Shown here: one piece after another, positions 32,821 to 53,605 of the stretch
Layout of the letters: each line of letters starts with the position of its first letter
Numbering within the stretch: position 1 is the stretch's first letter
DNA from: Rikenellaceae bacterium
Lineage (GTDB): Bacteria; Bacteroidota; Bacteroidia; Bacteroidales; Rikenellaceae
Assembly: GCA_044433965.1 (NCBI GenBank)
Contig: JAWXTF010000001.1
Span: 23,912-87,911, forward strand
DNA length: 64,000 nucleotides
Direction of reading: 5' to 3'
Made by a program: the position numbers and the translations under genes
The notes under the pieces: generated by a model
Database searches by the model: none
What the model saw: only the letters and a program-made list of their open reading frames with translations
What the model was told of the DNA's origin: nothing

Positions 32821-33270
32821 TTCGGTTCGGTTCGGTTGCTTTCTGCGCGCTTCGGTTCGGTTGCTTTCTGTGCGCTTCTTACTGCCTCCGGCGGGCGGGG
32901 ATAGCACCCCCGCGGGTGCATACCTTTCTTGCGCTTTGGGCTTAGAGATTGCATCTCTAAGATAATAAAGACCAAAGAGTTGACGCAAATAAATTTGCAC
33001 AACTCCTTGGTCTTTATTATTCTTTAAATGCCTACGGCATTTAAACCTAAATCGAGGTGAACCTCACAGATGTGGTGGTGGCAACCAAAGGTTGACACAG
33101 AGATCTCTATTCTGAGGAGCGTTGAAAGTTCACTTTCAAAAGCCCCTCAGAGTAGATATCTCGCCGGGGGGCAAAGCCCCCACCACATCAGTGCAATACA
33201 AAAATCAAAAACGAAGTTTTTGGATCCAAGCTTAGCTTGGTGCCGCGCGGCATGAGCGCGATAAGCAAGC
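32821..33270 (+). repeat. Modular palindromic repeat family, copy 5 (most complete single unit)
   Basis: It has the full module order from ctgcctccggcggg to ggatccaagcttagcttggtgccgcgcggcatgagcgc and lies between convergent genes. Confidence 0.95.
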
Positions 33271-33296
33271 GGCAACCAAGGCATCAAAGCCCTCCT

Positions 33297-34541
33297 TTAA
33301 TGTTGAAGCTTCACCTCCTCATCAGGGTTATGTTTATACTTAAAGACCAATACAAATACAACTGCCATCACCAAAGCAAAGGCAGCAAAGATATACCACG
33401 AAAGAGGTGACTGCATGCCATCGACTGTTAAGGTGCTATTAACGACCCACTGAGCCGCATATGAGCCCACGATGGCACCAATACCGTTTGTCATAATCAT
33501 AAATACACCCTGTGCACTTGAGCGAATCTCGGGCGATGTCTCGCGATTAACGAAGAGTGATCCAGAGATATTGAAGAAGTCAAATGCTACACCATATACT
33601 ATCATCGAGATAAAGAACATCCACACTCCAGCTCCGGGGTTACCCGCTCCAAGAAGTGCGAAGCGCAACATCCATGCGACCATCGAGATCAACATAACAT
33701 TCTTAATACCAAATCGTTTGAGGAAGAAAGGAATTAAGAGGATGCAGAGCGTCTCCGAGACCTGCGAAAGGGAGATCAATATTGTTGAATGTTTGGTGAA
33801 GAATGCATCTTTGTACTCAGCAAGGCTACTAAAGCTATGTATATAGCTATCTCCAAATGCGTTGGTGATCTGTAGCATCATTCCAAGCATCATTGAGAAA
33901 ATAAAGAATAGTGCCATGCGACGCTCCTTGAAGAGTGAGAATGCGCGCAGACCCAAGTTATCGACAAAGGTTCGTTTGTCGCCTCCCTTAACGATATCGC
34001 AGTTGGGAAGTGTAAAGGCGTATAGACCCAACACAACTCCTATAGCTGCCGAAAAGTAGAGCTGAGAGGCGTTGTGTCCAAATCCCAAGAGATCGACGCA
34101 CCACATAGAGGCGATAAAGCCGACTGTACCCCACACGCGGATTGGTGGAAAAGCCTTTACTGTGTCGAGCTTCGCCTTCTCCAGAGCGTTGTAAGCTACC
34201 GAGTTCGAGAGGGCTATAGTTGGCATGTAGAACATCACACTCATCAACACGGCGGTGTAGAGAGGCGCATACTCAGTTTGCGATGCTGCCACAACCATAA
34301 ATGCAGCTGCCACAAGGTGGCAGATACCCAATAACTTTTGTGCAGGCACCCAGCGGTCTGCAATGATACCCATTATAGCAGGCATAAAGAGTGAGCCCAA
34401 GCCCATAGTAGCATAGAAGCTACCAATTTTACTACCAAGTTGTAACTCTCCGCCAAGATACTTTCCGAGCGTAATTAGCCATGCACCCCACACTGCAAAT
34501 TGGAGGAAGTTCATCACCGTGAGTCTGATTTTCATATTCAT
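33297..34541 (-). CDS. MFS nucleoside:H+ symporter (NupG/XapB family)
   Basis: Motifs MNFLQFAVWGAW, FPPIRVWGTVGFI, SQVSE and FDFFNISGSLFV. Confidence 0.9.
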   Translation of the reverse strand: MNMKIRLTVMNFLQFAVWGAWLITLGKYLGGELQLGSKIGSFYATMGLGSLFMPAIMGIIADRWVPAQKLLGICHLVAAAFMVVAASQTEYAPLYTAVLMSVMFYMPTIALSNSVAYNALEKAKLDTVKAFPPIRVWGTVGFIASMWCVDLLGFGHNASQLYFSAAIGVVLGLYAFTLPNCDIVKGGDKRTFVDNLGLRAFSLFKERRMALFFIFSMMLGMMLQITNAFGDSYIHSFSSLAEYKDAFFTKHSTILISLSQVSETLCILLIPFFLKRFGIKNVMLISMVAWMLRFALLGAGNPGAGVWMFFISMIVYGVAFDFFNISGSLFVNRETSPEIRSSAQGVFMIMTNGIGAIVGSYAAQWVVNSTLTVDGMQSPLSWYIFAAFALVMAVVFVLVFKYKHNPDEEVKLQH

Positions 34542-34984: not shown

Positions 34985-35719
34985 ATGATAGTTCAAACTT
35001 CACATTCGCTTTCGGTCGATTGCGTGGTATTTGGCTTCAATGGTCAAAGCCTTAAGGTGCTACTTGTCGAGCGCCGCTACAAGGCAGTTATGCCCGAGCG
35101 CCCCAAGGAGTATAAGTTGCCAGGAAGTATGATCCTTGAGGCTGAGGCGTTGCCCGATGCTGCTGGTAGGGTACTCTCGGAGATGACAGGACTTTGCGAT
35201 GTATTTCTCAAACAGACTACGATATTTTCGGACCCTCAGCGCGTTGCGGGGGAGGAGTTGCGATGGATCAATGAGTACCATGGCATCGATACTAATCGCG
35301 TGGTTACGGTTGGATACTATGCTTTGGTGAAACTTGACCGCCAGACGGTTGCCCACACCACCGCTGTAGGTGCCCATTGGGCTTCTATCGAGAGTGTGAA
35401 ACATCTTGCAATGGATCACAAGGTGATTTTGGCTGATGCTCTTTCGATTTTGTGTGAGCAAGTCGCCTCTTCGCCAATTGCCTTTGAACTTCTACCTCGC
35501 AAATTTACTATTCGCCAGCTTCAAACTCTCTACGAGGCTATCTTGGGTGTCGATATCGACAACCGCAACTTTAGAAAAAAGCTATTGGAATCGGGTTATT
35601 TGACCCCAACAGGTGAGCGCGAGAAGGGCGTTGCACATAAACCTGCCGAGTTCTACACATTCAATATGGCAGCATACAAAAAGAGCAAAAGTGGTAAATT
35701 CAAATTAAGATTTATATAA
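34985..35719 (+). CDS. xylR: NrtR-family (Nudix + wHTH) xylose regulator
   Basis: Motifs SVDCVVFGF, LPGS, FTIRQLQTLYEAILG and DNRNFRKK. It heads the xylBAE cluster, as known for Bacteroides XylR. Confidence 0.8.
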   Translation: MIVQTSHSLSVDCVVFGFNGQSLKVLLVERRYKAVMPERPKEYKLPGSMILEAEALPDAAGRVLSEMTGLCDVFLKQTTIFSDPQRVAGEELRWINEYHGIDTNRVVTVGYYALVKLDRQTVAHTTAVGAHWASIESVKHLAMDHKVILADALSILCEQVASSPIAFELLPRKFTIRQLQTLYEAILGVDIDNRNFRKKLLESGYLTPTGEREKGVAHKPAEFYTFNMAAYKKSKSGKFKLRFI

Positions 35720-35722
35720 TAT

Positions 35723-37201
35723 ATGTATAGTTTAGGTATTGACGTAGGTTCGTCATCGGTAAAAGTATCTTTGATGGAGATCTCCTCGGGAGAGTGTGTT
35801 GCATCGGCAACCAACCCCGCGAGCGAAATGGCTATCGAATCGTTGCAGAGTGGTTGGGCAGAGCAGGAGCCCGATATGTGGTGGGATTATGTCTCGCAAG
35901 GAATCGAGCAGGTGGGGCGCGACTACCCCTTGAGCGAGGTTCGCTCAATAGGTATCACCTACCAGATGCATGGTTTGGTGGTGGTCGACGCCAAAGGGCA
36001 ACCACTTCGCAAAGCTATTATATGGTGCGACTCACGCGCAGTGGAGATTGGTGCCGAGGCATTCGAGTCTCTTGGTGAGGAGCGCTGCTTGGAACACTTA
36101 ATGAACTCTCCAGGTAACTTTACCGCCTCGAAATTGGCATGGGTGAAGCGCAATGAGCCAGAGATTTTTGCCAAAATCGACAAATTTATGTTGCCAGGTG
36201 ACTATATCGCCTACAAACTCTCGGGCGAGATCTCGACCACCGAGAGTGGTCTCTCGGAAGGTATCTTGTGGGACTTCAAGGAGAATAAACGTGCCGACTT
36301 CGTGGCGGAGCACTATGGTATTGAGACTGATAAATTCGCACAGGCAGGTCTCTCGATAGGCATAGGTGCACGAACCAATAGCGCAACGCACGCACAATTC
36401 GGAATCGAGGAGGGCACTCCAATCTCGTATCGTGCAGGCGATCAACCCAACAACGCCTTCTCGCTCAATGTGATGGAGGCAGGCGAGATTGCCGCTACGG
36501 GAGGTACAAGTGGCGTGGTATATGGAGTGATAGACACCCCAAAGGCTGACCCCAAATCGCGCGTAAATCCATTCTTGCATGTTAGCCATACTGCCGCGGC
36601 ACCTCGCTACGGAGTGTTGCTATGTATCAATGGCACAGGTATTCTCAATGCTTGGATGCGTCGCAATGTAGCTTCGGAGCTCGACTACCCTCAGATCAAT
36701 GAACTCGCCCAGAGTGTTGCCGCAGGTAGCGATGGCGTAGTGGTTTTGCCATTTGGCAATGGTGCCGAACGAGTGTTGGAGAATGCCTACACAAGGTGCG
36801 TTGTTGAGGGTATCGACTTCAATAACCACTCTGTAGCCCACCTCCTTCGTGCTTCGCAAGAGGGTATCGCCTTCTCGTTTCGTTATGGAATCGACATCAT
36901 GCGTCAAATGGGTCTCAACCCCTCGGTGATCCGTGCGGGCAAGGCGAATTTGTTCCTTAGTCCTCTCTTCCGTCAGACCCTCGCCACTATTTGCGATTCA
37001 CAGATCGAGCTCTACAATACCGACGGAGCATTGGGTGCAGCACGTGGAGCGGCACTTGGCGCAGGCTTCTATGCGAGTCGCGAGGAGGCATTCGCGTCGC
37101 TCAAGAAGTTGGAGACAATCGAGCCAAACGCAGCAGATCGCGCAGCTCTCGACACAGCATACGAGGCTTGGAAGAGAGCTTTAGAGTCAAAATTACAATA
37201 A
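35723..37201 (+). CDS. xylB: Xylulokinase (FGGY family)
   Basis: Motifs LGIDVGSSS, IIWCDSR, GNFTASKL and GDQPNNA. Confidence 0.92.
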   Translation: MYSLGIDVGSSSVKVSLMEISSGECVASATNPASEMAIESLQSGWAEQEPDMWWDYVSQGIEQVGRDYPLSEVRSIGITYQMHGLVVVDAKGQPLRKAIIWCDSRAVEIGAEAFESLGEERCLEHLMNSPGNFTASKLAWVKRNEPEIFAKIDKFMLPGDYIAYKLSGEISTTESGLSEGILWDFKENKRADFVAEHYGIETDKFAQAGLSIGIGARTNSATHAQFGIEEGTPISYRAGDQPNNAFSLNVMEAGEIAATGGTSGVVYGVIDTPKADPKSRVNPFLHVSHTAAAPRYGVLLCINGTGILNAWMRRNVASELDYPQINELAQSVAAGSDGVVVLPFGNGAERVLENAYTRCVVEGIDFNNHSVAHLLRASQEGIAFSFRYGIDIMRQMGLNPSVIRAGKANLFLSPLFRQTLATICDSQIELYNTDGALGAARGAALGAGFYASREEAFASLKKLETIEPNAADRAALDTAYEAWKRALESKLQ

Positions 37202-37239
37202 TTTAATTTATATAAAATAAACTTTAAAACAAAAAAATT

Positions 37240-38556
37240 ATGGCACAAAGAGAGTATTTCCCACAGGTAGGAAAGATCGCATTCGAAGGTAAAGAGTCTA
37301 AAAATCCATTGGCATATCGCTACTACGATGCCGAGAAGGTAGTATATGGTCGCAAGATGAAGGATTGGTTCCGCTTCTCAATGGCATGGTGGCACACGCT
37401 ATGCGCTGATGGAGCTGACCAGTTTGGTGGTGGCACTCAAATTCACCCTTGGATCGAGGGCTCAACAGCACTCGAAGTGGCTAAAAATAAGATGGATGCA
37501 GGTTTCGAGTTTATGCAGAAGATGGGCATCGAGTATTACTGTTTCCACGATGTCGACCTTATCGCAGAGGGCGACTCAGCTGAGGAGTATGAGGCAAACC
37601 TCAAGGCAATTGTAGCCTATGCAAAAGAGAAACAAGCTGAGACAGGTATCAAACTATTGTGGGGTACAGCCAACGTATTTAGCCACGCACGCTATATGAA
37701 TGGCGCATCGACCAACCCTGATTTCGATGCAGCGGCTCGTGCAATGTTGCAGATCAAAAATGCAATCGACGCAACTATCGAGCTTGGTGGCGAGAACTAC
37801 GTATTCTGGGGTGGCCGCGAGGGCTATATGAGCCTCTTGAACACCGACATGAAGCGCGAGAAACAGCACATGGCAACAATGCTTGGCATGGCGCGCGACT
37901 ACGCTCGCTCAAAGGGTTTCACTGGAAACTTCCTTATTGAGCCAAAGCCAATGGAACCAACTAAACATCAGTATGATGCAGATACAGAGACTGTTATTGG
38001 CTTCCTTAAGGCTAATGGCTTAGACAAGGATTTCAAAGTAAATATCGAGGTCAACCACGCAACCCTCGCCGGTCACACCTTTGAGCACGAGTTGCAGTGT
38101 GCAGTCGATGCAGGCATGTTGGGCTCTATCGATGCTAACCGTGGCGATGCTCAAAATGGTTGGGATACCGACCAATTCCCTAACGATATTTCCGAGGCGG
38201 TTCGCGCGATGATGGTTATACTTCGTGGTGGTGGTCTCCAGGGTGGTGGCACCAACTTCGATGCTAAGATCCGTCGCAACTCTACCGACCTTGAGGATCT
38301 CTTCATAGCTCACATTGGCGGTATGGATATCTTCGCTCGCGCATTGGAGATTGCAGCCGATATGTTGGAGAACTCTCCTTATGAGTCGATGATCGAGGAG
38401 CGTTACTCATCATACGATGCTGGCGCAGGTGCCGACTTCGAGGCGGGTAAGATGACCTTGGAGCAGGTTGCTGAGTATGCACGCACGGCGGGTGAGCCAA
38501 AGCAGATCAGTGGCAAACAGGAGCTCTATGAAGCGATAGTCAACATGTATATTTAA
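37240..38556 (+). CDS. xylA: Xylose isomerase (class II)
   Basis: Motifs [31 protein letters not shown] and GWDTDQFP. Confidence 0.98.
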
Positions 38557-38563
38557 TTAATTC

Positions 38564-38681
38564 GTGCGACTTACAAGGCGACTTTTGGCACTTCTCTCCG
38601 CTTTTTAATCCTCATGCACTAATAGTGCACTGCGGTTAAAAATACTCACGAAGCCCAAAAATTCATCCTTGTAAGTCACAC
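38564..38681. repeat. 118-bp imperfect inverted-repeat element between xylA and xylE
   Basis: Ends gtgcgacttacaagg / ccttgtaagtcacac; inner pairs ttttgg..cttc / gaag..ccaaaa and tttttaatcc / ggttaaaaa; central tgcac-taata-gtgca. Confidence 0.8.
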
Positions 38682-38732
38682 TCTCTTTGGGATGAACCCC
38701 CAATCATTATAACCAACCAAACCAATGAACTA

Positions 38733-40166
38733 ATGAACAATAATCAAAACGGTAGTAAGCTCTACCTATTTGGAATAACGATGGTGGCGATCCTCGGAGG
38801 TCTACTATTCGGTTACGATACGGCTGTAATATCGGGTGCTGAGGGCGCTATGCAGCAATTCTTTAGGCAGGCTACAGACTTCGACTATACCAGCGCGCTA
38901 CACGGAATGACCTCTTCGAGTGCACTTATAGGTTGTGTCGTCGGAGGTGCCATCTCAGGTCTACTCGCAGGTCGCTTTGGTCGTCGCAACTCGCTGATGA
39001 TTGCCTCGGTACTCTTCTTTTTGTCTGCTTTAGGCTCATACAATCCTGAATTTCTACTCTTCGAGAAGGGTACACCTACCTTTGGACTCTTTGTAGCCTT
39101 TAACATCTATCGCGTCATAGGTGGCGTTGGAGTGGGTCTCGCTTCGGCAATCTGCCCTATGTATATCGCTGAGTTGGCTCCCGCCTCAATCCGTGGAACG
39201 CTCGTCTCATGTAACCAATTTGCTATTATCTTTGGTATGCTTGTGGTCTACTTCGTCAACTATATGATTAAAGGGGCACTACCCAATCCCGAGATTATGT
39301 TTGGTGATACTTCTATCACCCAGGCGATGGTCGATACAGGTTGGCGACGTATGTTCCTCAGTGAGTCGATCCCTGCGGCACTCTTCGGTTTGCTGCTCCT
39401 CGCTGTACCCAAAACACCTCGCTACCTAATGATGATTGGACAGGAGAGCAAAGCCTTCAAGGTTTTGGAGCGAATAAATGGAAATGCAGAGGCTAAGAGC
39501 ATTATCGAGGATATCCGACAAACAACGACAGAGAAGCAACAACCTCTACTCACCTTTGGAGTTGCTGTTATTGCCATTGGTGTATTGCTCTCGATATTCC
39601 AACAAGCAGTGGGTATCAACGTGGTGTTGTACTACGCCCCTCGCATCTTCGAAAGTATGGGTGCATCGGGCGACACAGCTATGATTCAGACAGTTGTGAT
39701 GGGTGTTGTGAATATTGCCTTCACTGCCGTAGCGATCTTCACAGTCGATAAGTGGGGTCGTAAACCTCTTCTCATTGTAGGATCATTAGGCATGATGCTC
39801 GGCATGATTGCCCTCGGCACGCTCTCGTTTATGGGTAGCATTGGCGTGGCAGCACTCATCTCAATTATCATCTACACAGCATCATTTATGATGTCGTGGG
39901 GGCCAATCTGTTGGGTCTTGATCTCTGAGATCTTCCCCAATACTATTCGTGGCAAAGCGGTAGCAATAGCCGTAGCAGCACAGTGGATCGCCAACTACAC
40001 CGTATCGTCGACATTTATCTCACTCTCGGAGTGGAGCATCGGCGGAACATACCTCATCTATGCCGCCTTCGGATTGATGTCGGTCATCTTCGTCTGGAAG
40101 TTCGTCCCCGAAACCAAAGGCAAGAGCCTTGAGGATATGACCCGCTTGTGGTCAGATAGAAAATAA
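38733..40166 (+). CDS. xylE: D-xylose:H+ symporter (sugar porter family)
   Basis: Motifs GGLLFGYDTAVISGA, GRRNSL, PMYIAE, QQAVGINVVLYY and SWGPICWVLISEIFP. Confidence 0.95.
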   Translation: MNNNQNGSKLYLFGITMVAILGGLLFGYDTAVISGAEGAMQQFFRQATDFDYTSALHGMTSSSALIGCVVGGAISGLLAGRFGRRNSLMIASVLFFLSALGSYNPEFLLFEKGTPTFGLFVAFNIYRVIGGVGVGLASAICPMYIAELAPASIRGTLVSCNQFAIIFGMLVVYFVNYMIKGALPNPEIMFGDTSITQAMVDTGWRRMFLSESIPAALFGLLLLAVPKTPRYLMMIGQESKAFKVLERINGNAEAKSIIEDIRQTTTEKQQPLLTFGVAVIAIGVLLSIFQQAVGINVVLYYAPRIFESMGASGDTAMIQTVVMGVVNIAFTAVAIFTVDKWGRKPLLIVGSLGMMLGMIALGTLSFMGSIGVAALISIIIYTASFMMSWGPICWVLISEIFPNTIRGKAVAIAVAAQWIANYTVSSTFISLSEWSIGGTYLIYAAFGLMSVIFVWKFVPETKGKSLEDMTRLWSDRK

Positions 40167-40168
40167 CC

Positions 40169-40447
40169 TGCTCATTGCGCTTGCTTTTTTGATGCTTGCT
40201 CTTGCTTGCTCATGCCTGCTCATTGCGCTCGTGCCGCGCGGCACCAAGCAAGCTTGGATCCAAAAACTTCGTTTTTGACTTTATTTTTGTTGCACTGATG
40301 TGGTGGGGCTTTGCCCCTTTACAAGAGATCTATTCTGAAGAGCTTTTGAAAGTGAACTTTCAACGCTCACCAGAATAGATCTCTTGCGTGTCAACCTTCG
40401 GTTGCCACCACCACATCAGCGAGGTTCACATCTCTTACACCCCCAAC
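40169..40447 (-). repeat. Modular palindromic repeat family, copy 6 (right half, reverse orientation)
   Basis: It starts 3 bp after the xylE stop and shares the extra module gtgtaagagatgtgaacctc with copy 9. Confidence 0.95.
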
Positions 40448-40499
40448 CTCCACTACCAACCTCCTCCCAGAAAGTCCCAGAAAGTCCCAGTCAGTCTCA

Positions 40500-40960
40500 G
40501 AAAACCCCTGTTAAAAACCTGTTAACAACCCCCAAAAACCTGTCAACAACCCTTAAAAAAATGTTAATTACTCATACAATATCATGATGATAACTATTAA
40601 TAAGTTTTATAACATTTCTATTGACAAGAGCGAAAAAATTTATAAGCAACAAAAGATCTTAAAAGTCAAGAAAAAGTTATTAAAAGTTATCATCAACAAT
40701 AATGTAGGGTTATCAAAGGTTAATGTTAACAAAAAATAGATGTTAATATGTTAATAAATATTGCAAACAATTGTTAACTTTGCGATGTTAAAACTATTAT
40801 ACTACTAAATTATAGCTATATAACAGTGATTTCTACAATTTAGTTATTAACAACTCGCAAATTTGTTGTTTATAACTAAATTGGTCAAATTGGTTATCAA
40901 CACTATCAACAGCTATTATATTTATTATTATAATTAAATTATTTATAAAGAAAAGAAAAA
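40500..40960. other. Candidate chromosomal replication origin (oriC)
   Basis: About 460 bp, very AT-rich and non-coding. DnaA-box-like 9-mers at 40520, 40541, 40690, 40724, 40749, 40844, 40867, 40894 and 40903; trio-like triplets CTA TTA TAT TTA TTA TTA TAA TTA at 40913-40936. Confidence 0.7.
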
Positions 40961-40971
40961 AGATAAGAGCT

Positions 40972-41913
40972 ATGAACCAAGAGTTAATTGAGAAGAAAAT
41001 CGAAATAATTGAAGAGCTTAAACGAGAGAAGGGTGCCGTGATCCTCTCGCACTACTACACCACCGAGGATGTTCAGCGTGTAGCAGACTTTCTGGGTGAT
41101 TCTCTTGCGCTATCGATCAAGGCGCAGAGTGTTGAAGCCGATGTGATTCTCTTTGCCGGGGTTCACTTTATGGCTGAGACTGCCAAGGTGCTATCGCCTC
41201 AGAAGCGTGTCTTGATCCCACGCACCGATGCTCTGTGCTCTCTTGCCGACTCTTGCCGTGCGGAGGATCTCGCTCTGCTTAAATCGCAACACCCTGCGCA
41301 CAAGGTTGTCTCTTATGTCAATACCACCGTTGGGGTGAAGGCATTGACTGATATCTGTTGCACCTCGTCGAATGCCCTCGACGTAGTACGCTCTATTGAC
41401 CCTTCAGAGCCTATTATTTTCGCTCCAGACCGCAACTTGGGCTCCTATATCCAGAAGCTCACCGGAAGGGATAATATGATCCTCTGGGACGGTGCATGCC
41501 ATGTGCATGAGGAGTTCTCATTGGAGGCGATACTCAAACTCAAAGAAGAGCACAGAGCAGCCAAAGTTGTGGTGCACCCCGAATGTCGTGCCTACATCGT
41601 CGAGATTGCCGACTTTGTGGGCTCCACAGCGGCGATACTTGACTATTGTGGTGGTGAGGATCTCGATGAGTTTATAGTAGTTACAGAGGCGGGAATACTC
41701 GCTGAGATGAGACGTCGATACCCCACAAAGAGCTTTATCCCCGCTCCACCTATCGACTCCACTTGTGGTTGCAATAACTGTAACTATATGAAGATGATAA
41801 CGCTCGACAATATTATATCCACTCTTGAGAATATGTCTCCCGAAGTGGAGCTCGATGAAGAGGTGCGACAGGCTGCCGAAAGATCTATTATCAACATGAT
41901 TCAGTATAGCTAA
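40972..41913 (+). CDS. nadA: Quinolinate synthase
   Basis: Motifs ILSHYY, GDSLALS, GVHFMAETAK, CSLADSC, YVNT, CHVH, HPEC and CNYMK. Confidence 0.97.
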   Translation: MNQELIEKKIEIIEELKREKGAVILSHYYTTEDVQRVADFLGDSLALSIKAQSVEADVILFAGVHFMAETAKVLSPQKRVLIPRTDALCSLADSCRAEDLALLKSQHPAHKVVSYVNTTVGVKALTDICCTSSNALDVVRSIDPSEPIIFAPDRNLGSYIQKLTGRDNMILWDGACHVHEEFSLEAILKLKEEHRAAKVVVHPECRAYIVEIADFVGSTAAILDYCGGEDLDEFIVVTEAGILAEMRRRYPTKSFIPAPPIDSTCGCNNCNYMKMITLDNIISTLENMSPEVELDEEVRQAAERSIINMIQYS

Positions 41914-41934
41914 ATCATTGATTACACTTAACTG

Positions 41935-41983
41935 AACTGCCTTCGGCAGGTGGGGTATTATCTTCCACCTGCCGAAGGCAGTT
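41935..41983. terminator. Hairpin between convergent nadA and deoC (likely bidirectional terminator)
   Basis: Perfect 19-bp stem aactgccttcggcaggtgg / ccacctgccgaaggcagtt with an 11-nt loop. Confidence 0.75.
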
Positions 41984-42048
41984 ATAATTTCAAGAATACT
42001 AATTAAGGTTTAAACCTCACTAAGCCTTAATTCGTGTTAAGAAGTATG

Positions 42049-42927
42049 TTAATAATATTTCACCTCTTTGCCCTCTATTGCTGATATCAGGTTGTTGGCA
42101 GCCGATGAAGCACCAATACGGAAGAGTGATGTTGTGAGCCACTCGCGACCGAGAATCTCCTCAACTATAGTGTAGTAGAGTGCTGCATCTTCGGGTGTGC
42201 GAACGCCTCCAGCCACCTTGAATCCTATCTTTGTGCCCGTAGCATCGTAGTAGTCTTTTATCGCTTGACATATCACCACTGCCGCTTGTGGAGTTGCTGC
42301 AATGTCGATCTTGCCTGTTGAGGTCTTTACGAAGTCGGCACCCGCAAAGATTGATAGTAGGGATGCTGCACGTATATGCTTAGGCTCCTTGAGGGCTCCA
42401 CTCTCGATAATTACCTTTAGGATGATCTCGGGCTCCATCTCCTCGCGTATCACCTCCACCTCGTTGGCTGCCAGCTCATAGCTCCCCGAGAGTATCATGC
42501 CTACATTCATCACAATATCAATCTCATCGGCTCCATTCTCCATCGCCATTGCTGTTTCGAGTGCCTTCACCTCCAAAAATGTCTGCGAGGCAGGGAAGCC
42601 CGCCGAGACACTTGTGATGCGCATTGGAGTACCATCAACAACTAAACCCACAGTCTCGACAAAGGAGGGAAAGATGCAGATAGATGCCACATTGGGAATG
42701 TGGGGATACTCCCGGTAAAAATCTACACACTTGGTTGCAAATTGACGTACAGACTCCTCAGAGTCGTTGCACGATAGGGTAGTGAGGTCTATTGCCGAAA
42801 AGCAGAATTTATATACATCAACATTGTGGTTGCGCTTTGAAAGCTCCTCAAAGGTTGCAACTTGCGCTGCCACCTGCTCGGGTGTTGCCGCTGCGCCATA
42901 TCCATTTAAAAGGTTTGTGTACTCCAT
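42049..42927 (-). CDS. deoC: Deoxyribose-phosphate aldolase
   Basis: Motifs IDLTTL, GFP, GADEIDIV, LKVIIE, FVKTSTGK, FKVAGG and RIGASS. Confidence 0.95.
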   Translation of the reverse strand: MEYTNLLNGYGAAATPEQVAAQVATFEELSKRNHNVDVYKFCFSAIDLTTLSCNDSEESVRQFATKCVDFYREYPHIPNVASICIFPSFVETVGLVVDGTPMRITSVSAGFPASQTFLEVKALETAMAMENGADEIDIVMNVGMILSGSYELAANEVEVIREEMEPEIILKVIIESGALKEPKHIRAASLLSIFAGADFVKTSTGKIDIAATPQAAVVICQAIKDYYDATGTKIGFKVAGGVRTPEDAALYYTIVEEILGREWLTTSLFRIGASSAANNLISAIEGKEVKYY

Positions 42928-43012
42928 AAATTTGGTTGTAAAAGTGTTTGCTACAAAGATATGAATAAATTAGAAGAGTTACAAATTCAATTCATAATTC
43001 ATAATTTATAAT

Positions 43013-43534
43013 TCATAATTCACAACACTCCTTTGCAACTCTCTCTATTTGGCTACTCTCAACATCATTGGTTAGCACCTTATAGAAAAAGTTTTCAACA
43101 CTCTCATAATTGTTGTTGATCTTTCCCGAAAGACAGCGGTAGAAGTCATTAAGCTGCTCTACACTGAGGCTATCTGCCAAAATACCCTGGTTGATAAGCG
43201 TGCGGTAGGGGTAGAGGTAGCGCAACGAGGTGGCATCGGCGTCGATATCTTCGATGATGCTCGCAACAACCCACATATCTAAACTGTCGTTGTATGAGGG
43301 CATAACAACAAGCTGTGAATAGATAGGGTAACTCCGCTCAACATCTGTTGAAATGTTGTTCGCAAAGAGTACAAATTCAGCATTGTTGAACTCATTGAGA
43401 TAGACCATGTCGCGGTAATTGTCAATTGTTGCTGCAAACTCAACTCTTTCATCATCAGTCCATTTGGTAGGTTGTGAACAACCAATTGTTAATAACATTA
43501 GCACCACAATAGCGCTTAATAGTGATTTTCTCAT
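43013..43534 (-). CDS. Hypothetical lipoprotein
   Basis: MRKSLLSAIVVLMLLTIGC lipoprotein signal. Confidence 0.7.
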   Translation of the reverse strand: MRKSLLSAIVVLMLLTIGCSQPTKWTDDERVEFAATIDNYRDMVYLNEFNNAEFVLFANNISTDVERSYPIYSQLVVMPSYNDSLDMWVVASIIEDIDADATSLRYLYPYRTLINQGILADSLSVEQLNDFYRCLSGKINNNYESVENFFYKVLTNDVESSQIERVAKECCEL

Positions 43535-43593
43535 AAATGTTTATATTTGTTAATTTATCTTCGTGCGGCAAGTTCAATGCCATTTATTTATAC

Positions 43594-44084
43594 TGCTCTC
43601 TGTGCGCTTCTTTCTGTGCGCTTCTTTCTGCTTGCGGTTGCTTTCTGTGCGCTTCGGTTGGGTTCTTGCGGTGCTTTCTGTGCGCTTCTTACTGCCTCCG
43701 GCGGGCTGGGATAGCACCCCCGCGGGTGCGTATCATTGCGCTTTGGGCTTAGAGATTGCATCTCTAAGATTATAAAGATCAAAGAGTTGCCGCAAATAAA
43801 TTTGCACAACTCTTTGGTCTTTATAATTTTTAAATGCCTATGGCATTTAAACCCAAATCGAGGTTCACCTCGCTGATGTCGCGGTAGCTGCCGTAAACTC
43901 ATTTGCACAATTTCCTGATCTTTATAATTTTTAAATGCCTATGGCATTTAAATCAAAATCGAGGTGATCCTCGCTGATGTGCAAGGGGGCAAAGCCCCAC
44001 CACATCAGTGCAACAAAAAGTCAAAAACGACAGTTTTTGGATCCAAGCTTAGCTTGGTGCCGCGCGGCACGAGCGCGATAAGCA
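43594..44084 (+). repeat. Modular palindromic repeat family, copy 7 (the only copy in a divergent intergenic region)
   Basis: Several tandem ttctgtgcgctt linkers, an internal partial duplication, and loss of the large tgaaa hairpin module. Confidence 0.95.
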
Positions 44085-44258
44085 GTTATTTTCAGGTGTT
44101 TCAAAGAGTAGGAAATAATGGTAATTCCGAAATATTTTATATCTTTGCATCAATCAATGTAAAATAAAATTGATGTTAATCACGTTACATTATTGGGGAG
44201 ATTATATCTCGACCGGAGAAGTAACAAAAATAAGTAACAACCTTAAAACACCAAAGGC

Positions 44259-45566
44259 ATGAAAAAGTTCAGATTTATAGCAATCATGACGGCCGTTGTA
44301 ACTCTTGCAGGTAGTTGTTCTTCAGCTATGTACCAGAGTTCTGCTGGTTGGGGTGACGACCTTTACGGGGTTCATAACCAGACCGCAATATACCAAAAAC
44401 AGATAGCGCAGGCGCAGGCGCGACAGGCGGAAGCCGAGGCACGCAAAGCTGAGGCGGAGGCATTAGCAGCCGAGTGGAGGGCAATTACTGCTGGCAGCTC
44501 AGTTGATAACGAGGCATATTCGAGGAGTGAATATGACACTAAGTATTCAAATTTATTGAGTAAATTTGATGATGAGGTATATGTGCTTCCAGACTCATAC
44601 TATGCACTTGCCAGTGAGGATGGAGTGTCATATGTCGATGCATACGACCCTACGGCATCAACGGTGATTATTTCGGGTGATGTCTATGTCTCACCGCTCT
44701 ACACCTCGTCGATGTTTGGTTATTGGGGAGCTACCTCCTACTTTGACTATGCATACTACTCACCCTATTGGCGTTCGTCGTGGTTCTACACACCCTACTA
44801 CTACAACTCGTGGTATGGTTACAACCACTACTCATGGGGCTACTGGAACTGGAATTTCTGCTATAGTCCCTTCTATGATCCTTGGTACTACCCAAGCTAC
44901 CGCCCCTACCACCACTATGGCTACTCGAACCCATATAGCAACCGCGACTACTACCGTACAAACCGTGCGGGAGGCGCAAGCAGCAGCCGTAGCAATAACC
45001 GCTACATCCCGGGAGCTACAAGCAACTCGGGCTCTACACGCACCTCACGAAGTTCTATCTCTTCTACTCGTGGCTCGGCATCAAGCTACACAACTCCGTC
45101 GAGCATTACTACACGTTCGATAAGTGCCACTCGCGGCAGCAGCGCGACAACATCTTCATCGAGCATCTCCAACCGCAACCAAGGAAGTATACCTTCGAAT
45201 GCAACTCGCACATCAAGTTATAGCCGCAAGGTGGTGTCGACCAGCCCAACAAGCTCATCATCGAGCAGGAATACGGCAACGGCAGCAGCCTCAAGCAGCT
45301 CGACAAACGCTAAGAGAAGCTCTCGATTCTCGTTCTCCACATCGCAGAATGAAAATAGTAGTTCTTCATCTTCGCGCAGCAGCAGCAGTTACAACAACAA
45401 CAACTCGCGCAGCAGCAACAACAACTACTATAACAATAACAGCAGCAGCTACAATTCGCGTAGCAGCTTCGGCAGCAGCTCAAGGAGCAGTGGCAGCAGC
45501 TTTAGTAGTGGCAGCAGCAGTGGCGGTTCGCGCAGCATCAGCAGTGGCAGCTCACGTGGCCGTTAG
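44259..45566 (+). CDS. Lipoprotein with a Tyr/Trp-rich middle and a Ser/Arg/Asn-rich disordered tail
   Basis: Lipobox AGSC, DDLY motif and an AGC/AAC-rich 3' end; TATCTTTG promoter box at 44140-44147. Confidence 0.8.
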   Translation: MKKFRFIAIMTAVVTLAGSCSSAMYQSSAGWGDDLYGVHNQTAIYQKQIAQAQARQAEAEARKAEAEALAAEWRAITAGSSVDNEAYSRSEYDTKYSNLLSKFDDEVYVLPDSYYALASEDGVSYVDAYDPTASTVIISGDVYVSPLYTSSMFGYWGATSYFDYAYYSPYWRSSWFYTPYYYNSWYGYNHYSWGYWNWNFCYSPFYDPWYYPSYRPYHHYGYSNPYSNRDYYRTNRAGGASSSRSNNRYIPGATSNSGSTRTSRSSISSTRGSASSYTTPSSITTRSISATRGSSATTSSSSISNRNQGSIPSNATRTSSYSRKVVSTSPTSSSSSRNTATAAASSSSTNAKRSSRFSFSTSQNENSSSSSSRSSSSYNNNNSRSSNNNYYNNNSSSYNSRSSFGSSSRSSGSSFSSGSSSGGSRSISSGSSRGR

Positions 45567-45651: not shown

Positions 45652-47337
45652 ATGAAACGTAGATTATCAATAGCGCTACTCGCAACAGTAGCAGCAACAC
45701 TAATTTCGACAAATACAGAGGCTCAGACCTATGGCGGATGGGTTCTCGACCACGATATAATGATGCCGACAGACTTCGCAATGCTCTCACAGACTCAAGT
45801 ATTTGGCACCTCTCGCTCGATGGCTATGGGTGGTGCATTTACCTCGTTGGGTGCCGACCTCTCGTCGAGTGTGATTAACCCCGCAGGTTTGGGAATGTAT
45901 GCCCACGAGACCCTATCATTTACTCCGAAGCTCTCTATTGCTAACTCTCTCAACTCGGGAGTACCCTCCTGGATTGGTAACAGCAAAACGAATTTCGGAT
46001 TCTCTAACTTAGGCGCCTCATTCAAATTGGTTGAGAATGGCAAAGGCTCACTCATTGCGCTCAATGGTGCGATAACCTACAACCGTTTGGCGGACTATAA
46101 TACACGTACCTCGTTCTCCTCGGAGAGTCTCTACGACCCCACGACCGATGACTTGGTACCCTCGATAGCCGATATCTTTATCGGTCAGTTGGCTGGAGCA
46201 GAAATCTTCCCCGACTCAGAGGGTGGTATGAGCTACGATAATAACCCCTACTTTTGGCCTGCTCAATCAGCCTATAAGACATACCTTATCGACCCTTTGA
46301 GTGGCAACAGCGGCTGGGGTACCAACACAATAGGTCACAACGCCTCGGTTCTTAGCTCAATGGAGATGGTCCAACGCGGGCGTGCCGACGAATATTCATT
46401 TGCTATTGGTGGCAATGTGGGTAACTTCCTCTATTTTGGCGCAACCCTTGGCTTGCAGGATATCAACCAAGTTACCGAGTATACCTACCAAGAGGAGTAT
46501 AACTACTACTCTGACGAGGGCTATGCCTATGGTTCGGCTGCCGACCTCGACCCACTGGACTACCAAGCAAGCTACACCAATATATGGCAAAAAACGGCTA
46601 TCAGTGGTGTGGGCTACAACCTTAAGTTGGGTCTTATAGCTCGTCCTACGCGCTCACTACGCATTGGAGTTGCACTCCACTCACCAACCTACTACAGCTT
46701 GGCTCGCACCTACGAGACTTCGACAGCAACCAATATCCTTGGTAATGCCTCTGGTCTCACCCCCTCGGAGGAGTTCTGGGTATCGTCACCCCAATTTATC
46801 GACAATTATGAGTATAGCTGGAACTTCCGCACACCACCAAAACTTCTTGTGGGAACCTCGCTTCAAGTGGGTGCTATAGGCATAATCTCTCTCGACTATG
46901 AGCGTCAGTGGTACAATTCAATCAGAGTTAGTAATGCCCCTGGAGAACTCACCACGGAGGATTACAAAGCCTCTTATAAGGGAGCCTACCAACCTACCAA
47001 CACCTTCCGCCTTGGTATCGAGGTCAAACCTCTACCCCTTGTGGCACTCCGCGCTGGTGGTGGCGTAAGCAGCTCTATGGTCAAAGATGAGACTCTCTTC
47101 TACAGCTCACCTGTGGCTACCGACTCATCGTATATTACATGTGGTCTTGGCTTCCAACTATCAGCTACTACAACACTCGATTTGGCATACCAATATCACC
47201 ACCAAAACTACTCTCCATACTACCTGTTCTTCACCGAAACCGCCGCCGATAATAGTAGTGTGTTGAGAGGCAGCAACCTCTTCGAGACATCGATGGATAG
47301 AAGCTTTATCACAGCGACACTCACATTTAGAATGTAA
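45652..47337 (+). CDS. Outer-membrane FadL/OmpP1/TodX-like beta-barrel (often labelled hemin receptor)
   Basis: Signal peptide; GTSRSMAMGGAFTSLGADLSS..INPAGLG plug motif; terminal aromatic strand. Confidence 0.85.
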   Translation: MKRRLSIALLATVAATLISTNTEAQTYGGWVLDHDIMMPTDFAMLSQTQVFGTSRSMAMGGAFTSLGADLSSSVINPAGLGMYAHETLSFTPKLSIANSLNSGVPSWIGNSKTNFGFSNLGASFKLVENGKGSLIALNGAITYNRLADYNTRTSFSSESLYDPTTDDLVPSIADIFIGQLAGAEIFPDSEGGMSYDNNPYFWPAQSAYKTYLIDPLSGNSGWGTNTIGHNASVLSSMEMVQRGRADEYSFAIGGNVGNFLYFGATLGLQDINQVTEYTYQEEYNYYSDEGYAYGSAADLDPLDYQASYTNIWQKTAISGVGYNLKLGLIARPTRSLRIGVALHSPTYYSLARTYETSTATNILGNASGLTPSEEFWVSSPQFIDNYEYSWNFRTPPKLLVGTSLQVGAIGIISLDYERQWYNSIRVSNAPGELTTEDYKASYKGAYQPTNTFRLGIEVKPLPLVALRAGGGVSSSMVKDETLFYSSPVATDSSYITCGLGFQLSATTTLDLAYQYHHQNYSPYYLFFTETAADNSSVLRGSNLFETSMDRSFITATLTFRM

Positions 47338-47356
47338 ATTCCCCCTTAATTTAAAG

Positions 47357-48160
47357 ATGGAAACAAGCCACTTTTTATACGCCTTTGCCCTCACCCTCTT
47401 TGCAGGCTTAGCAACGGGCATTGGTAGTCTTATTGCGCTTGTAGCACGTCGAACCAACAAAACATTGCTCTCATTCTCGCTGGGTCTCTCGGCGGGAGTG
47501 ATGATCTATGTCTCCTTTGTGGAGCTCTTTGGTGAGGCACAGCACTCCCTCACTCTCTCATTTGGTGAGCAGATGGGCTCCCTCTACACTATTTTTGCCT
47601 TCTTTGGCGGTGTAACTCTTATCGCACTTATCGACTTTGTGGTTCCCTCGGCAGATAACCCCCACGAACTACGCGGGGTGGAGGATATCGAGAAGAGTGA
47701 CCCCACGGCTCGCCTACACCGCATGGGGCTACTCACAGCTCTCGCTATAGCTATCCACAACTTCCCAGAGGGAATAGCTACATTTGCTACAGCCTATGAG
47801 GATCCTTCACTTGGTTTGGCGATTGCTGTCGCTGTAGCGATACACAATATCCCCGAGGGGATAGCCGTATCAGTGCCAATATTCTACTCCACAGGGAGCC
47901 GCAAGAAGGCTTTCTGGTACTCGCTGCTGTCGGGTCTTGCAGAGCCTTTAGGGGGGATCATAGCATATCTTATACTCTCGCCACTGCTCTCCGACGAGCT
48001 AATTGGAGTTGTTCTCGCCTCGGTTGCTGGAATCATGGTCTATATTGCAGTCGATGAGTTGCTGCCCGCTGCCCGCGAATATGGGCGTGAGCATGTCTCA
48101 ATACTTGGCTTCATATTGGGTATGGCGATAATGGCAATAAGTTTAATACTACTAATATAA
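47357..48160 (+). CDS. zupT: ZIP-family zinc transporter
   Basis: Motifs SAGVMIYVSFVE, IAIHNFPEG and HNIPEGIAVSVPI. Confidence 0.95.
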   Translation: METSHFLYAFALTLFAGLATGIGSLIALVARRTNKTLLSFSLGLSAGVMIYVSFVELFGEAQHSLTLSFGEQMGSLYTIFAFFGGVTLIALIDFVVPSADNPHELRGVEDIEKSDPTARLHRMGLLTALAIAIHNFPEGIATFATAYEDPSLGLAIAVAVAIHNIPEGIAVSVPIFYSTGSRKKAFWYSLLSGLAEPLGGIIAYLILSPLLSDELIGVVLASVAGIMVYIAVDELLPAAREYGREHVSILGFILGMAIMAISLILLI

Positions 48161-48194
48161 ACCCTATATTTTTCTCTACACACCAAACTTATTT

Positions 48195-49127
48195 ATGATT
48201 AACATTCTACTCCTTGTTGGAGGTATTCTCCTGATTTTGGGTGGTGCAAACTACCTTACCGATGGCTCGGCAGCGTTGGCAAAACGTCTCAATGTATCGG
48301 AATTTATTATTGGACTCACTATTGTTGCAATTGGCACCTCCACCCCTGAGCTTGTTGTGAGCGTTTTTTCGGCTCTCAATGGCAGTGGCGCGATGGCTAT
48401 TGGCAATGTGGTAGGCTCGAACATCTTCAACACCTATGTGATCTTGGGTATCTGTGCACTCTTCGCACCTGTTGCGCTCACAGAGCGCAATATGAAGGTA
48501 GATATACCTATGGGTATATTGGTATCAACAATTCTACTTTTGGTCTGCTTGGGTGGCACGATACAACGCTACTACGGCATTGTGATGCTTCTTATCTACG
48601 TTGCACTTATCATCTACTCTATCAAAACCTCGAAGGGTGATACCTCAGATGCCGAAGAGGGTGAGGAGATCAAGGTGTTGCCTATGTGGTTGACTCTTGT
48701 GATGGTTGTAGGAGGTCTGGCAGCACTTATCTATGGAGGTAATATATTCCTTGAGGGTGCTGTCAATATCGCCAAGGAGAATAATATTCCCGACAATATC
48801 ATCGCTATCACGCTCCTCGCTGGAGGAACCTCACTACCCGAGTTAGCTGCTTCAATAGTATCGCTTATCAAGGGCAAATCTGATATTGCGCTGGGCAATG
48901 TTATCGGCTCCAATATCGCAAATATATTGTTGGTACTTGGTGCAAGCTCCTCTATAATACCTTTGTCGATGGGAAGCATAACGCTTTACGATATCATAGT
49001 TGTATTGTTTGGTTCCATGATGCTCTACATCAGCGGTTACACATTTGGGAAGCGCCAAATATCGAAGGTTGAAGGCGCCCTGATGCTACTTATATATGGT
49101 GGCTACATATGGTGGCTATTATCCTAA
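48195..49127 (+). CDS. Calcium/sodium antiporter (YrbG family)
   Basis: Alpha repeats GTSTPEL...GNVVGSNIFN and GTSLPEL...GNVIGSNIAN. Confidence 0.93.
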   Translation: MINILLLVGGILLILGGANYLTDGSAALAKRLNVSEFIIGLTIVAIGTSTPELVVSVFSALNGSGAMAIGNVVGSNIFNTYVILGICALFAPVALTERNMKVDIPMGILVSTILLLVCLGGTIQRYYGIVMLLIYVALIIYSIKTSKGDTSDAEEGEEIKVLPMWLTLVMVVGGLAALIYGGNIFLEGAVNIAKENNIPDNIIAITLLAGGTSLPELAASIVSLIKGKSDIALGNVIGSNIANILLVLGASSSIIPLSMGSITLYDIIVVLFGSMMLYISGYTFGKRQISKVEGALMLLIYGGYIWWLLS

Positions 49128-49131
49128 AATC

Positions 49132-49749
49132 ATGGAGAAATTAGAATTCCCCTTAACAACATCATTTCAGGTAGCACTTATTGAGGCTGGTTGCGATGAG
49201 GCAGGTCGCGGATGCTTGGCAGGAGATCTTTTTGCAGCTGCGGTGATCCTACCTGCCGGTTTCTCGCACCCTCATCTCAACGACTCGAAGAAGATGAGTC
49301 TGAGGCGTCGCAATGAGCTACGACACATCATCGAGCAGGAGGCTATTGCTTGGGCTGTGGAGCCACTAAGCGCTGCACGCATAGATGAGATCAATATCCT
49401 AAATGCCTCTTTCGAGGCTATGTCTATGGCTGTTAAAAGGCTCTCCACAACACCCGAGCTGCTCTCAATAGATGGTAATAGGTTTAAGACAGAGCTTCAG
49501 ATACCCTTCAACTGCATAGTTAAAGGAGATGGTAAATATGCAAATATTGCTGCCGCCTCGGTACTCGCAAAGACCTACCGCGATGAGTATATGGAGCGTA
49601 TTGATGAGGAGTATCCCCAATATGGATGGAAGAAAAATAAAGGATATCCAACTCTTCAACATCGATTGGCGATAGCTGAGCATGGGTTATCCCCCTATCA
49701 TCGTCTGAGTTTTAATAGCGGTGTGGGGCAGTTGAAGATTGAGTTTTAG
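49132..49749 (+). CDS. rnhB: Ribonuclease HII
   Basis: Motifs GCDEAGRG, LNDSKK, IDGN, KGDG and IAAASVLAK. Start taken at the ATG at 49132. Confidence 0.96.
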   Translation: MEKLEFPLTTSFQVALIEAGCDEAGRGCLAGDLFAAAVILPAGFSHPHLNDSKKMSLRRRNELRHIIEQEAIAWAVEPLSAARIDEINILNASFEAMSMAVKRLSTTPELLSIDGNRFKTELQIPFNCIVKGDGKYANIAAASVLAKTYRDEYMERIDEEYPQYGWKKNKGYPTLQHRLAIAEHGLSPYHRLSFNSGVGQLKIEF

Positions 49750-49792
49750 GGAGTTGCTGAGAGTTTTTTTTCTGGGACTTTCTGAGACGTAT

Positions 49793-50040
49793 GCGAGGTG
49801 AACCTCGGTGATTTGCTCATGGCAACCGGAGGTTGACATTAAAAAAATAGTATACTTAAGTGTTGAAAATTCATTTTCAAAAGCTTAAGTATACTATTTT
49901 TTTTGTAGTCGCTGCAAGCGACGAGCAAATCAGTGCAATAATACGCACCCGCGGGGGTGCTATCCCCGCCCGCCGGAGGCAATCCGAAGCGCACAGCAAG
50001 CAACCGCAAGCAACTCGAAGCGCACAGCAAGCAACCGCAA
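49793..50040. repeat. Modular palindromic repeat family, copy 8 (diverged composite)
   Basis: A forward large-hairpin module with replaced arms, plus a reverse left-end module, between convergent genes. Confidence 0.9.
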
Positions 50041-52876: not shown

Positions 52877-53605
52877 TGCTGCCTTCGGCGGGCGCTTGCT
52901 TGCTTTCTGTGCGCTTTTTGCTTCTTTCTGTGCGCTTCTTTCTGCCTCCGGCGGGCGGGGATAGCACCCCCGCGGGTGCGTATCATTGCTTCTTTCTGTG
53001 CGCTTCTTTCTGCCTCCGGCGGGCGGGGATAGCACCCCCGCGGGTGCGTACCATTGCGCTTTGGGCTTAGAGATTGCATCTTTAAGATTATAAAGAGCAA
53101 GGAGTTGCCGCAAATAAATTTGCACAACTCCCTGCTCTTTATAATTTTTAAATGCCTTTGGCATTTAAACCCAAATCGAGGTGAACCTCGCTGATGTGGT
53201 GGTGGCAACCGAAGGTTGACACAGAGAGATCTATTATGAGGAGAAATGAAAGTTGGGCGTGTAAGAGATGTGAACCTCGCTGATGTGGTGGTGGCAACCG
53301 AAGGTTGACACAGAGAGATCTATTATGAGGAGCGTTGAAAATTCATTTTCAAAAGCTCATCATAATAGATCTCTCGCAGAGGGGCAAAGCCCCCACCACA
53401 TAAGTGCAACAAAAAAAAGTCAAAAACGAAGTTTTTGGATCCAAGCTTGCTTGGTGCCGCGCGGCATGAGCGCGATGAGCAAGCTCCCCAAGCGGCAACC
53501 CCAAGCAAAGCCCCACCACATAAGTGCAACAAAAAAAGTCAAAAACGAAGTTTTTGGATCCAAGCTTGCTTGGTGCCGCGCGGCATGAGCGCAATAAGCA
53601 AGCAA
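52877..53605 (+). repeat. Modular palindromic repeat family, copy 9 (longest; several modules duplicated)
   Basis: The left module occurs twice plus a partial, the middle module is restarted, and the terminal ~120 bp is tandemly duplicated (53401 vs 53521). Confidence 0.95.

Follow-up and report, generated by a model that had tools for sequence, protein, structure and literature searches.

Is the AT-rich DNA that separates nadA from its upstream neighbor the chromosomal replication origin of an uncultured fish-gut Rikenellaceae bacterium, as a first-pass annotation of this locus had proposed? Judging from the comparative sequence evidence presented below, positions 40500–40971 of the window (the whole 64-kb stretch of DNA analysed here) probably constitute oriC. 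The proposal gains support because a conserved unit lies upstream of nadA in related genomes, because homologous units match modules listed for DoriC origins, and because 32 of 34 related loci show an upward shift of GC skew at the corresponding position.

Anatomy of the nadA-upstream region

The gap between the sugar transporter gene (38733–40166, plus strand) and nadA (40972–41913, plus strand), two genes of the same orientation, is 805 bp long, and its right 472 bp (40500–40971) have a G+C content of 23.5%, as compared with about 48% for the window. Box enrichment in this AT-rich stretch was assessed against 1000 dinucleotide-preserving shuffles of the stretch itself. The motif TTATCNACA, allowing at most one mismatch, occurs 8 times (0.89 expected; none of the 1000 shuffles reached 8), TTATCCACA with at most two mismatches also 8 times (2.19 expected; 1 of 1000 shuffles), and the TGTTAA core 11 times (1.36 expected; 0 of 1000). 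None of the window's other intergenic regions has more than one such box, and the nadA-upstream cluster is unique within the 64 kb. The boxes are degenerate: a perfect TTATCCACA is absent from the window's cluster, and a single box, at 40894, comes within one mismatch of this canonical sequence. All nine 9-mers and the 24-nt triplet run quoted by the first-pass annotation lie exactly where it had placed them. The parts of the region are listed below, with L numbers designating individual related loci.

40208–40459 (no strand): one copy of a dispersed, high-copy repeat that contains nested inverted repeats; left bound of the predicted origin, outside the origin proper
40509–40570 (minus): left array of four co-oriented, degenerate DnaA-box-like 9-mers, TGTTAAAAA (40509), TGTTAACAA (40520), TGTCAACAA (40541) and TGTTAATTA (40562), with start-to-start spacings of 11, 21 and 21 bp
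40585–40593 (minus): box-like TGATGATAA (reverse complement TTATCATCA), with which TGATGATAA or TGTCGATAA aligns in relatives
40661–40698 (plus): conserved block AAAAGTCAAGAAAAAGTT, then the overlapping boxes TTATCATCA (40687) and TCATCAACA (40690); near-invariant in four close relatives
40724–40794 (minus): central box cluster, TGTTAACAA (40724), TGTTAATAT (40741), TGTTAATAA (40749), TGTTAACTT (40772) and TGTTAAAAC (40786)
40844–40852 (plus): box TTATTAACA, aligned with a perfect TTATCCACA in Alistipes L003
40867–40875 (minus): box TGTTTATAA (reverse complement TTATAAACA), aligned with TGTTGATAG in L002, TATTGATAA in L018 and TGTCGAAAA in L003
40894–40911 (plus): directly abutting tandem DnaA boxes TTATCAACA and CTATCAACA, conserved in all Rikenellaceae loci
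40913–40936 (plus): candidate DnaA-trios CTA TTA TAT TTA TTA TTA TAA TTA, within a 39-nt invariant stretch
40913–40971 (no strand): putative AT-rich unwinding element, the least stable duplex, which is at the same time the leader directly before the nadA start codon
40972–41913 (plus): nadA, quinolinate synthase (Pfam NadA, E = 4.8e-116), the conserved neighbor of the predicted origin

About a dozen degenerate boxes thus precede the tandem pair, and nadA is transcribed away from the cluster. At its right end the region is strictly ordered, with the tandem boxes (40894–40911) followed by a single G and then by a 3-nt-periodic AT run from 40913. The upstream box of the pair is the better match to the consensus, and the triplets start 10 bp after it; this agrees with the published survey of such elements, in which tandem pairs tend to have the better match in their upstream box and the spacer length peaks at 10–13 bp (Pelliciari et al., PMC8287927). 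Six of the eight triplets fit (C/T)TA. If the register is shifted by 3 nt, seven triplets in a row have a central A on the complementary strand, which means that the triplet register is not uniquely defined. In the tables of PMC8287927 the complementary strand is printed 3'-to-5', as AATAGGTGT and then GAT, and the triplets therefore read CTA on the TTATCCACA strand, which is the orientation that had been assigned to the trios from the start. The duplex at 40913–40972 is the least stable of the 64 kb at the 40-, 60- and 100-bp scales. A basal unwinding system (BUS) is defined by tandem co-oriented boxes followed by at least three DnaA-trios on the correct strand within 16 bp; the tandem boxes, 10-bp spacer, triplets and adjacent least stable duplex found here fit this definition, and the BUS-type layout recognized in the first-pass annotation is upheld.

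By analogy with Bacillus subtilis, we hypothesize that DnaA would occupy about fifteen degenerate TT(A/G)T(C/T)AACA-type boxes spread over about 400 bp, forming a filament anchored by the tandem pair at 40894–40911 and extending along one strand of the 3-nt-periodic run from 40913. The AT-rich 60 bp up to the nadA start codon would then open, and the helicase would be loaded there. DnaA binding, unwinding and firing at 40500–40971 are predicted on the strength of this analogy.

The consistent change at box position 6 had been taken as a sign of altered DnaA specificity. Position 6 is A in all eight window boxes and in 9–10 of the 10–11 boxes per locus in the three closest relatives. The counts are five A and two G in L002 and six G, one C and one A in L003, where one orthologous site is a perfect TTATCCACA; the base is C in Chitinophaga, and mostly A with some C in the AT-rich Ferruginibacter. 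Boxes of the TTATCAACA type are already listed for a Clostridium origin and for the Porphyromonas gingivalis ATCC 33277 origin. The altered-specificity class, as in Thermotoga maritima, is defined by two features, a non-canonical box used consistently and corresponding changes in domain IV of DnaA. With A or G at this position in Rikenellaceae, C in Chitinophaga and TTATCAACA listed elsewhere, the claim of altered specificity is unsupported. Tolerance at position 6 would explain the box sequences as well as a changed preference would, and a purine preference in Rikenellaceae is conceivable.

The region was also searched for other kinds of elements. Rfam scans of the window, including a permissive scan of 40100–41050, returned only a tRNA-Gln (34660) and two meaningless plant microRNA matches, and the presence of a known RNA element upstream of nadA was rejected as the scans gave no relevant match. 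The promoter consensus of Bacteroidota differs from the sigma-70 type, and because of this difference no weight was given to the AT-driven matches returned by a sigma-70 scan, such as TCAACA-17-TATAAT at 40906–40934.

Conservation of the unit and its linkage to nadA

The closest nadA loci belong to Rikenellaceae and Alistipes (68–87% amino-acid identity), and the nadA-upstream locus itself occurs in two fish-gut metagenome runs. An exact search with the NadA sequence of the window returned just one 2.1-kb contig. A closed Alistipes genome was sought among the NadA homologues, of which the best 120 matches all lie on contigs of 722 kb or less. When the DNA preceding nadA in the window was aligned with that of three Alistipes loci and one Rikenellaceae locus, the box positions proved to be conserved while the sequence between the boxes diverges. 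In L018, L082 and L083 the left array is retained in position, in the form of TGTTAATAA or GTTGATAA repeats. The central cluster sits within two near-invariant blocks (40724–40757 and 40765–40782), and relatives have TGTTGATAA or TGTCGATA at the orthologous sites, which correspond to TTATCAACA or TTATCGACA. In Alistipes, the tandem pair is TTATCGACA TTATCGACA in L003 and TTGTCAACA GTATCAACA in L002. A stretch of 39 nt, TATCAACACTATCAACAGCTATTATATTTATTATTATAA, is invariant among four close relatives, all of which have different flanking genes, and more distant relatives carry trinucleotide repeats at the trio position. The flanking genes are as follows.

Window: xylose-type sugar transporter left of the origin, deoC-family aldolase right of nadA
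L018: phosphopantetheinyl transferase left of the origin
L082: RNase HII left of the origin
L083: mraY left of the origin, murG right of nadA
Alistipes L002–L004: Mrp-type ATPase left of the origin

Two genes that flank the origin in relatives lie elsewhere in the window: the S49 peptidase gene, which is left of the origin in Alistipes, at 54421–56214, and the RNase HII gene at 49096–49749. In L083 (8654–11450) the origin–nadA unit is located between mraY and murG in the dcw cluster, where murD/ftsW would be expected, and the box cluster is separated from the tandem boxes by an inserted repeat of about 350 bp; the arrangement is either a true rearrangement or a mis-join of the metagenome-assembled genome at repeats. 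Directly left of the window's origin, an operon of the xylose type (34985–40166) encodes a Nudix NrtR/AraR-type regulator, an FGGY sugar kinase, a xylose isomerase-like TIM-barrel protein and the sugar transporter, and its transcription would be head-on to a leftward fork.

Synteny of nadA with origins in other Bacteroidales, which the first-pass annotation had suggested examining, extends across Bacteroidota. A box–spacer–triplet unit immediately precedes nadA in Rikenellaceae/Alistipes and in other Bacteroidales, as well as in Chitinophagaceae and Pedobacter. The nadA loci of the last two groups and of the other Bacteroidales have their densest box cluster directly before this gene, and Chitinophaga has several perfect TTATCCACA boxes. 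The last 60–100 nt before nadA consist of two boxes, 1–4 nt, a trinucleotide run (CTA ATA GTA GTA, ATC ATC ATC or CAT CAT CAT) and AT-rich DNA. The modules listed for the DoriC origins of C. pinensis DSM 2588 and N. koreensis GR20-10 are matched by the Chitinophaga unit, TTTTCACATATTCACA(G/C)CCCTAATAGTAGTG, and by the unit of Niastella populi, respectively. As a converse test, a metagenome scan for TATCAACAGCTATTATAT returned 120 stretches. Those with the tandem-box context and enough downstream contig all have nadA about 110 nt further on, with the exception of L124, and the remaining stretches are unrelated chance matches. L124 (from 5944 onward) has the tandem-box context and then diverges, with no nadA in the following 437 nt. 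In L097 (from 484 onward) the 18-nt core and the AT-rich tail are kept, the upstream sequence is different and the following 917 nt contain no nadA. We found no description in the literature of a nadA–oriC linkage or of an Alistipes origin; the linkage is implicit in the DoriC entries.

Strand composition, assembly and competing explanations

For the 34 Bacteroidota loci with complete flanks, we calculated the GC-skew step at the nadA-upstream gap as the value for the right 4.5 kb minus that for the left 4.5 kb. Skew rises there from negative to positive, by +0.132 on average, and the step is positive in 32 of the 34; positions 5 kb away on either side, taken as controls, give -0.041 (paired Wilcoxon p about 1e-7). 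When gene orientation and locus were included as covariates, a side effect of +0.024 remained (t = 7.2; 716 genes, 48 loci). At cyanobacterial nadA loci the step is 0.009, keeping in mind that these loci are an imperfect control because they are few and show a GC3 side effect of their own (t = 3.0).

In the window, there is no step at 40.7 kb (step -0.025, regression term -0.004), nor is there one in the close relative L082 or in Alistipes L004, and no skew minimum coincides with the origin site within the 64 kb. The shared orientation of the genes on both sides of the site likewise speaks against an origin. The first-pass annotation was right to refrain from a claim on skew. The skew of the window switches sign in blocks. 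Its best-fitting split lies at about 15–22 kb (coefficient +0.06); no box cluster is present there, and the split was treated as heterogeneity. The strongest local upshifts, at ~34750 and 47250–49000 (+0.10 to +0.12), also have no DnaA-box cluster at either place. A repeat-mediated rearrangement, or a mis-join at repeats, would erase a local step and may explain why the window lacks one.

Dispersed repeats are indeed found around the predicted origin, with copies at 33000–33566, 40208–40459, 42639–44339 and 49443–50000. The family is intergenic, with nested inverted repeats and the core CCAAGCAAGCTTGGATCCAAAAAC, further copies of which occur at 53431, 53550 and 56740; in L018, L082 and L083, too, the origin is flanked by copies of the repeat, which may have either orientation. 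In the two fish-gut runs the word depth of the repeat is 1,400–39,000 versus about 50 for unique DNA, and the repeat must therefore exist in hundreds of copies. The contigs assembled from these runs have flat depth. The origin stretch itself is single copy, being represented by a 511-nt contig (40411–40921) that is identical to the window and has depths of 51 and 44.5, with about 50–55 for the flanks. No independent contigs cross the repeats, and the block verified as one unique piece extends from about 40411 to 43628. Runs X1 and X2 each contain a contig (depth about 38–41) that joins 40688 to 40892 and so lacks 203 bp of the box region; it could represent a deletion variant or a related strain. 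At 40892–40927 only, i.e. over the tandem boxes and the first triplets, the depth rises to ~400–500, which fits identical 31-mers common to more abundant related species in the same samples.

A cluster of DnaA boxes need not be an origin, and the one described here could instead be a DnaA-controlled nadA promoter or a titration/reactivation site of the datA/DARS type known from E. coli, with oriC located outside the window. The degenerate boxes and the absence of a skew step in the window are consistent with this, and the cluster ends at the nadA start codon and must therefore contain or overlap the nadA regulatory region. We nevertheless consider such a non-origin role unlikely, given that a homologous unit matches the DoriC unwinding modules of two complete Chitinophagaceae genomes, that the skew step occurs at the orthologous spot in 32 of 34 loci, and that a layout in which a tandem pair, a trinucleotide run and the least stable duplex succeed one another is that of an unwinding region and not of a titration site. 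The high-copy repeats on either side, the five different left neighbors (in the window, L018, L082, L083 and Alistipes) and the distant location in the window of the S49 peptidase gene that adjoins the Alistipes origin raise a further scenario, that of a relic or displaced origin, in which the cassette was moved by repeat-mediated rearrangement or the contig was mis-joined at repeats. This is very unlikely: the invariance of the 39-nt core and of the box blocks among relatives argues for continuing selection, the stretch exists in one copy, with the same depth as its flanks, and a displaced origin that still fires is still an origin.

It could also be asked whether the boxes serve as operators for a transcriptional regulator of NAD or sugar metabolism, such as the Nudix NrtR/AraR-type regulator encoded at 34985–35719, as an NrtR-family gene lies 5 kb upstream and nadA, the would-be target, is an NAD biosynthesis gene. 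However, the gene for this regulator is the first of a xylose-type operon that continues with those for a kinase, an isomerase-like protein and a sugar transporter, such motifs are absent upstream of the regulator gene itself, and Alistipes and Chitinophagaceae keep the boxes, which there are canonical DnaA boxes, without a neighboring regulator gene, all of which makes an operator array highly improbable. An iteron-type origin of a plasmid or integrated element, which the direct repeats 21 bp apart at 40520–40570 might bring to mind, is hardly credible in view of a unit that is chromosomal and found phylum-wide beside a housekeeping gene, has the depth of the chromosome, and has no replication-protein or mobility genes nearby. 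Cumulatively, we favor the reading of 40500–40971 as the chromosomal origin.

Implications and relation to known origins

Assignment of oriC to this segment likely fixes the start of replication for an uncultured Rikenellaceae genome and provides a rule for finding origins in fragmented Bacteroidota assemblies, namely to search the DNA immediately preceding nadA for a tandem box pair and a trinucleotide run, which may be of use for growth-rate estimates from metagenome coverage and for the construction of shuttle vectors. As a speculative possibility, to which we attach limited weight, the abutment of origin and nadA could be functional, with the unwinding element doubling as the nadA leader in much of Bacteroidota. 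In that case, the origin might be opened or licensed with the help of nadA transcription, or de novo NAD synthesis might be controlled by DnaA occupancy, which would couple initiation to NAD status. A related and equally tentative reading is that oriC and nadA form a cassette in the window's clade, the flanks of which have been repeatedly exchanged by the high-copy repeats, with a location in the dcw cluster in one relative.

The proposal that oriC is unlinked to dnaA stands insofar as dnaA, dnaN and gidA, reported as missing from the window by the first-pass annotation, did not turn up in a Pfam scan that covered 50 of the 53 ORFs called with a length of at least 90 aa; such separation is not unusual, an origin distant from dnaA being reported as common in Bacteroidetes (PMC4755523). 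Because dnaA-distant origins are usual in this group and TTATCAACA boxes are listed for other origins, the window's probable oriC is an ordinary origin of a known kind, to which the phylum-wide abutment to nadA is a modest addition, and knowledge of initiation is unchanged by it.

Among known systems, the BUS of B. subtilis (PMC6669920, PMC8287927) resembles the window in having tandem boxes in the 5'-TTATCCACA-3' orientation, of which the upstream one is better, 10 bp from this box to the triplets, (C/T)TA on the same strand, and AT-rich DNA thereafter. The window differs from it in that its boxes carry A at position 6, its spacer is one G rather than a GC-rich cluster of about 4 bp, its triplets, apart from the first, contain only A and T (TTA in place of CTA) and are ambiguous in register, and the unit abuts nadA rather than dnaA–dnaN; its function is predicted.

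The Chitinophagaceae origins predicted in DoriC form a second point of comparison. The DoriC module of C. pinensis DSM 2588 (ORI93020100) matches the nadA-upstream units of Chitinophaga L014 and L031, and that of N. koreensis GR20-10 (ORI95030423) matches the unit of Niastella L033; these three units occupy the position of the window's unit, and homology to the DoriC origins is drawn through their near-identity with congeners. Both origins belong to a different class (Chitinophagia), have canonical boxes with C at position 6 and carry the triplets CTA ATA GTA GTA, unlike those of the window. Within Bacteroidales, the DoriC-predicted origin of P. gingivalis ATCC 33277 (ORI92530214) and the origin of Prevotella intermedia OMA14 are, like that of the window, far from dnaA. 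The downstream triplets (CTC CTT CTT) differ from the window's. The P. gingivalis module, TTATCAACA GTTTCAACC, is close to the TTATCAACA CTTTCAACA of Alistipes L004.
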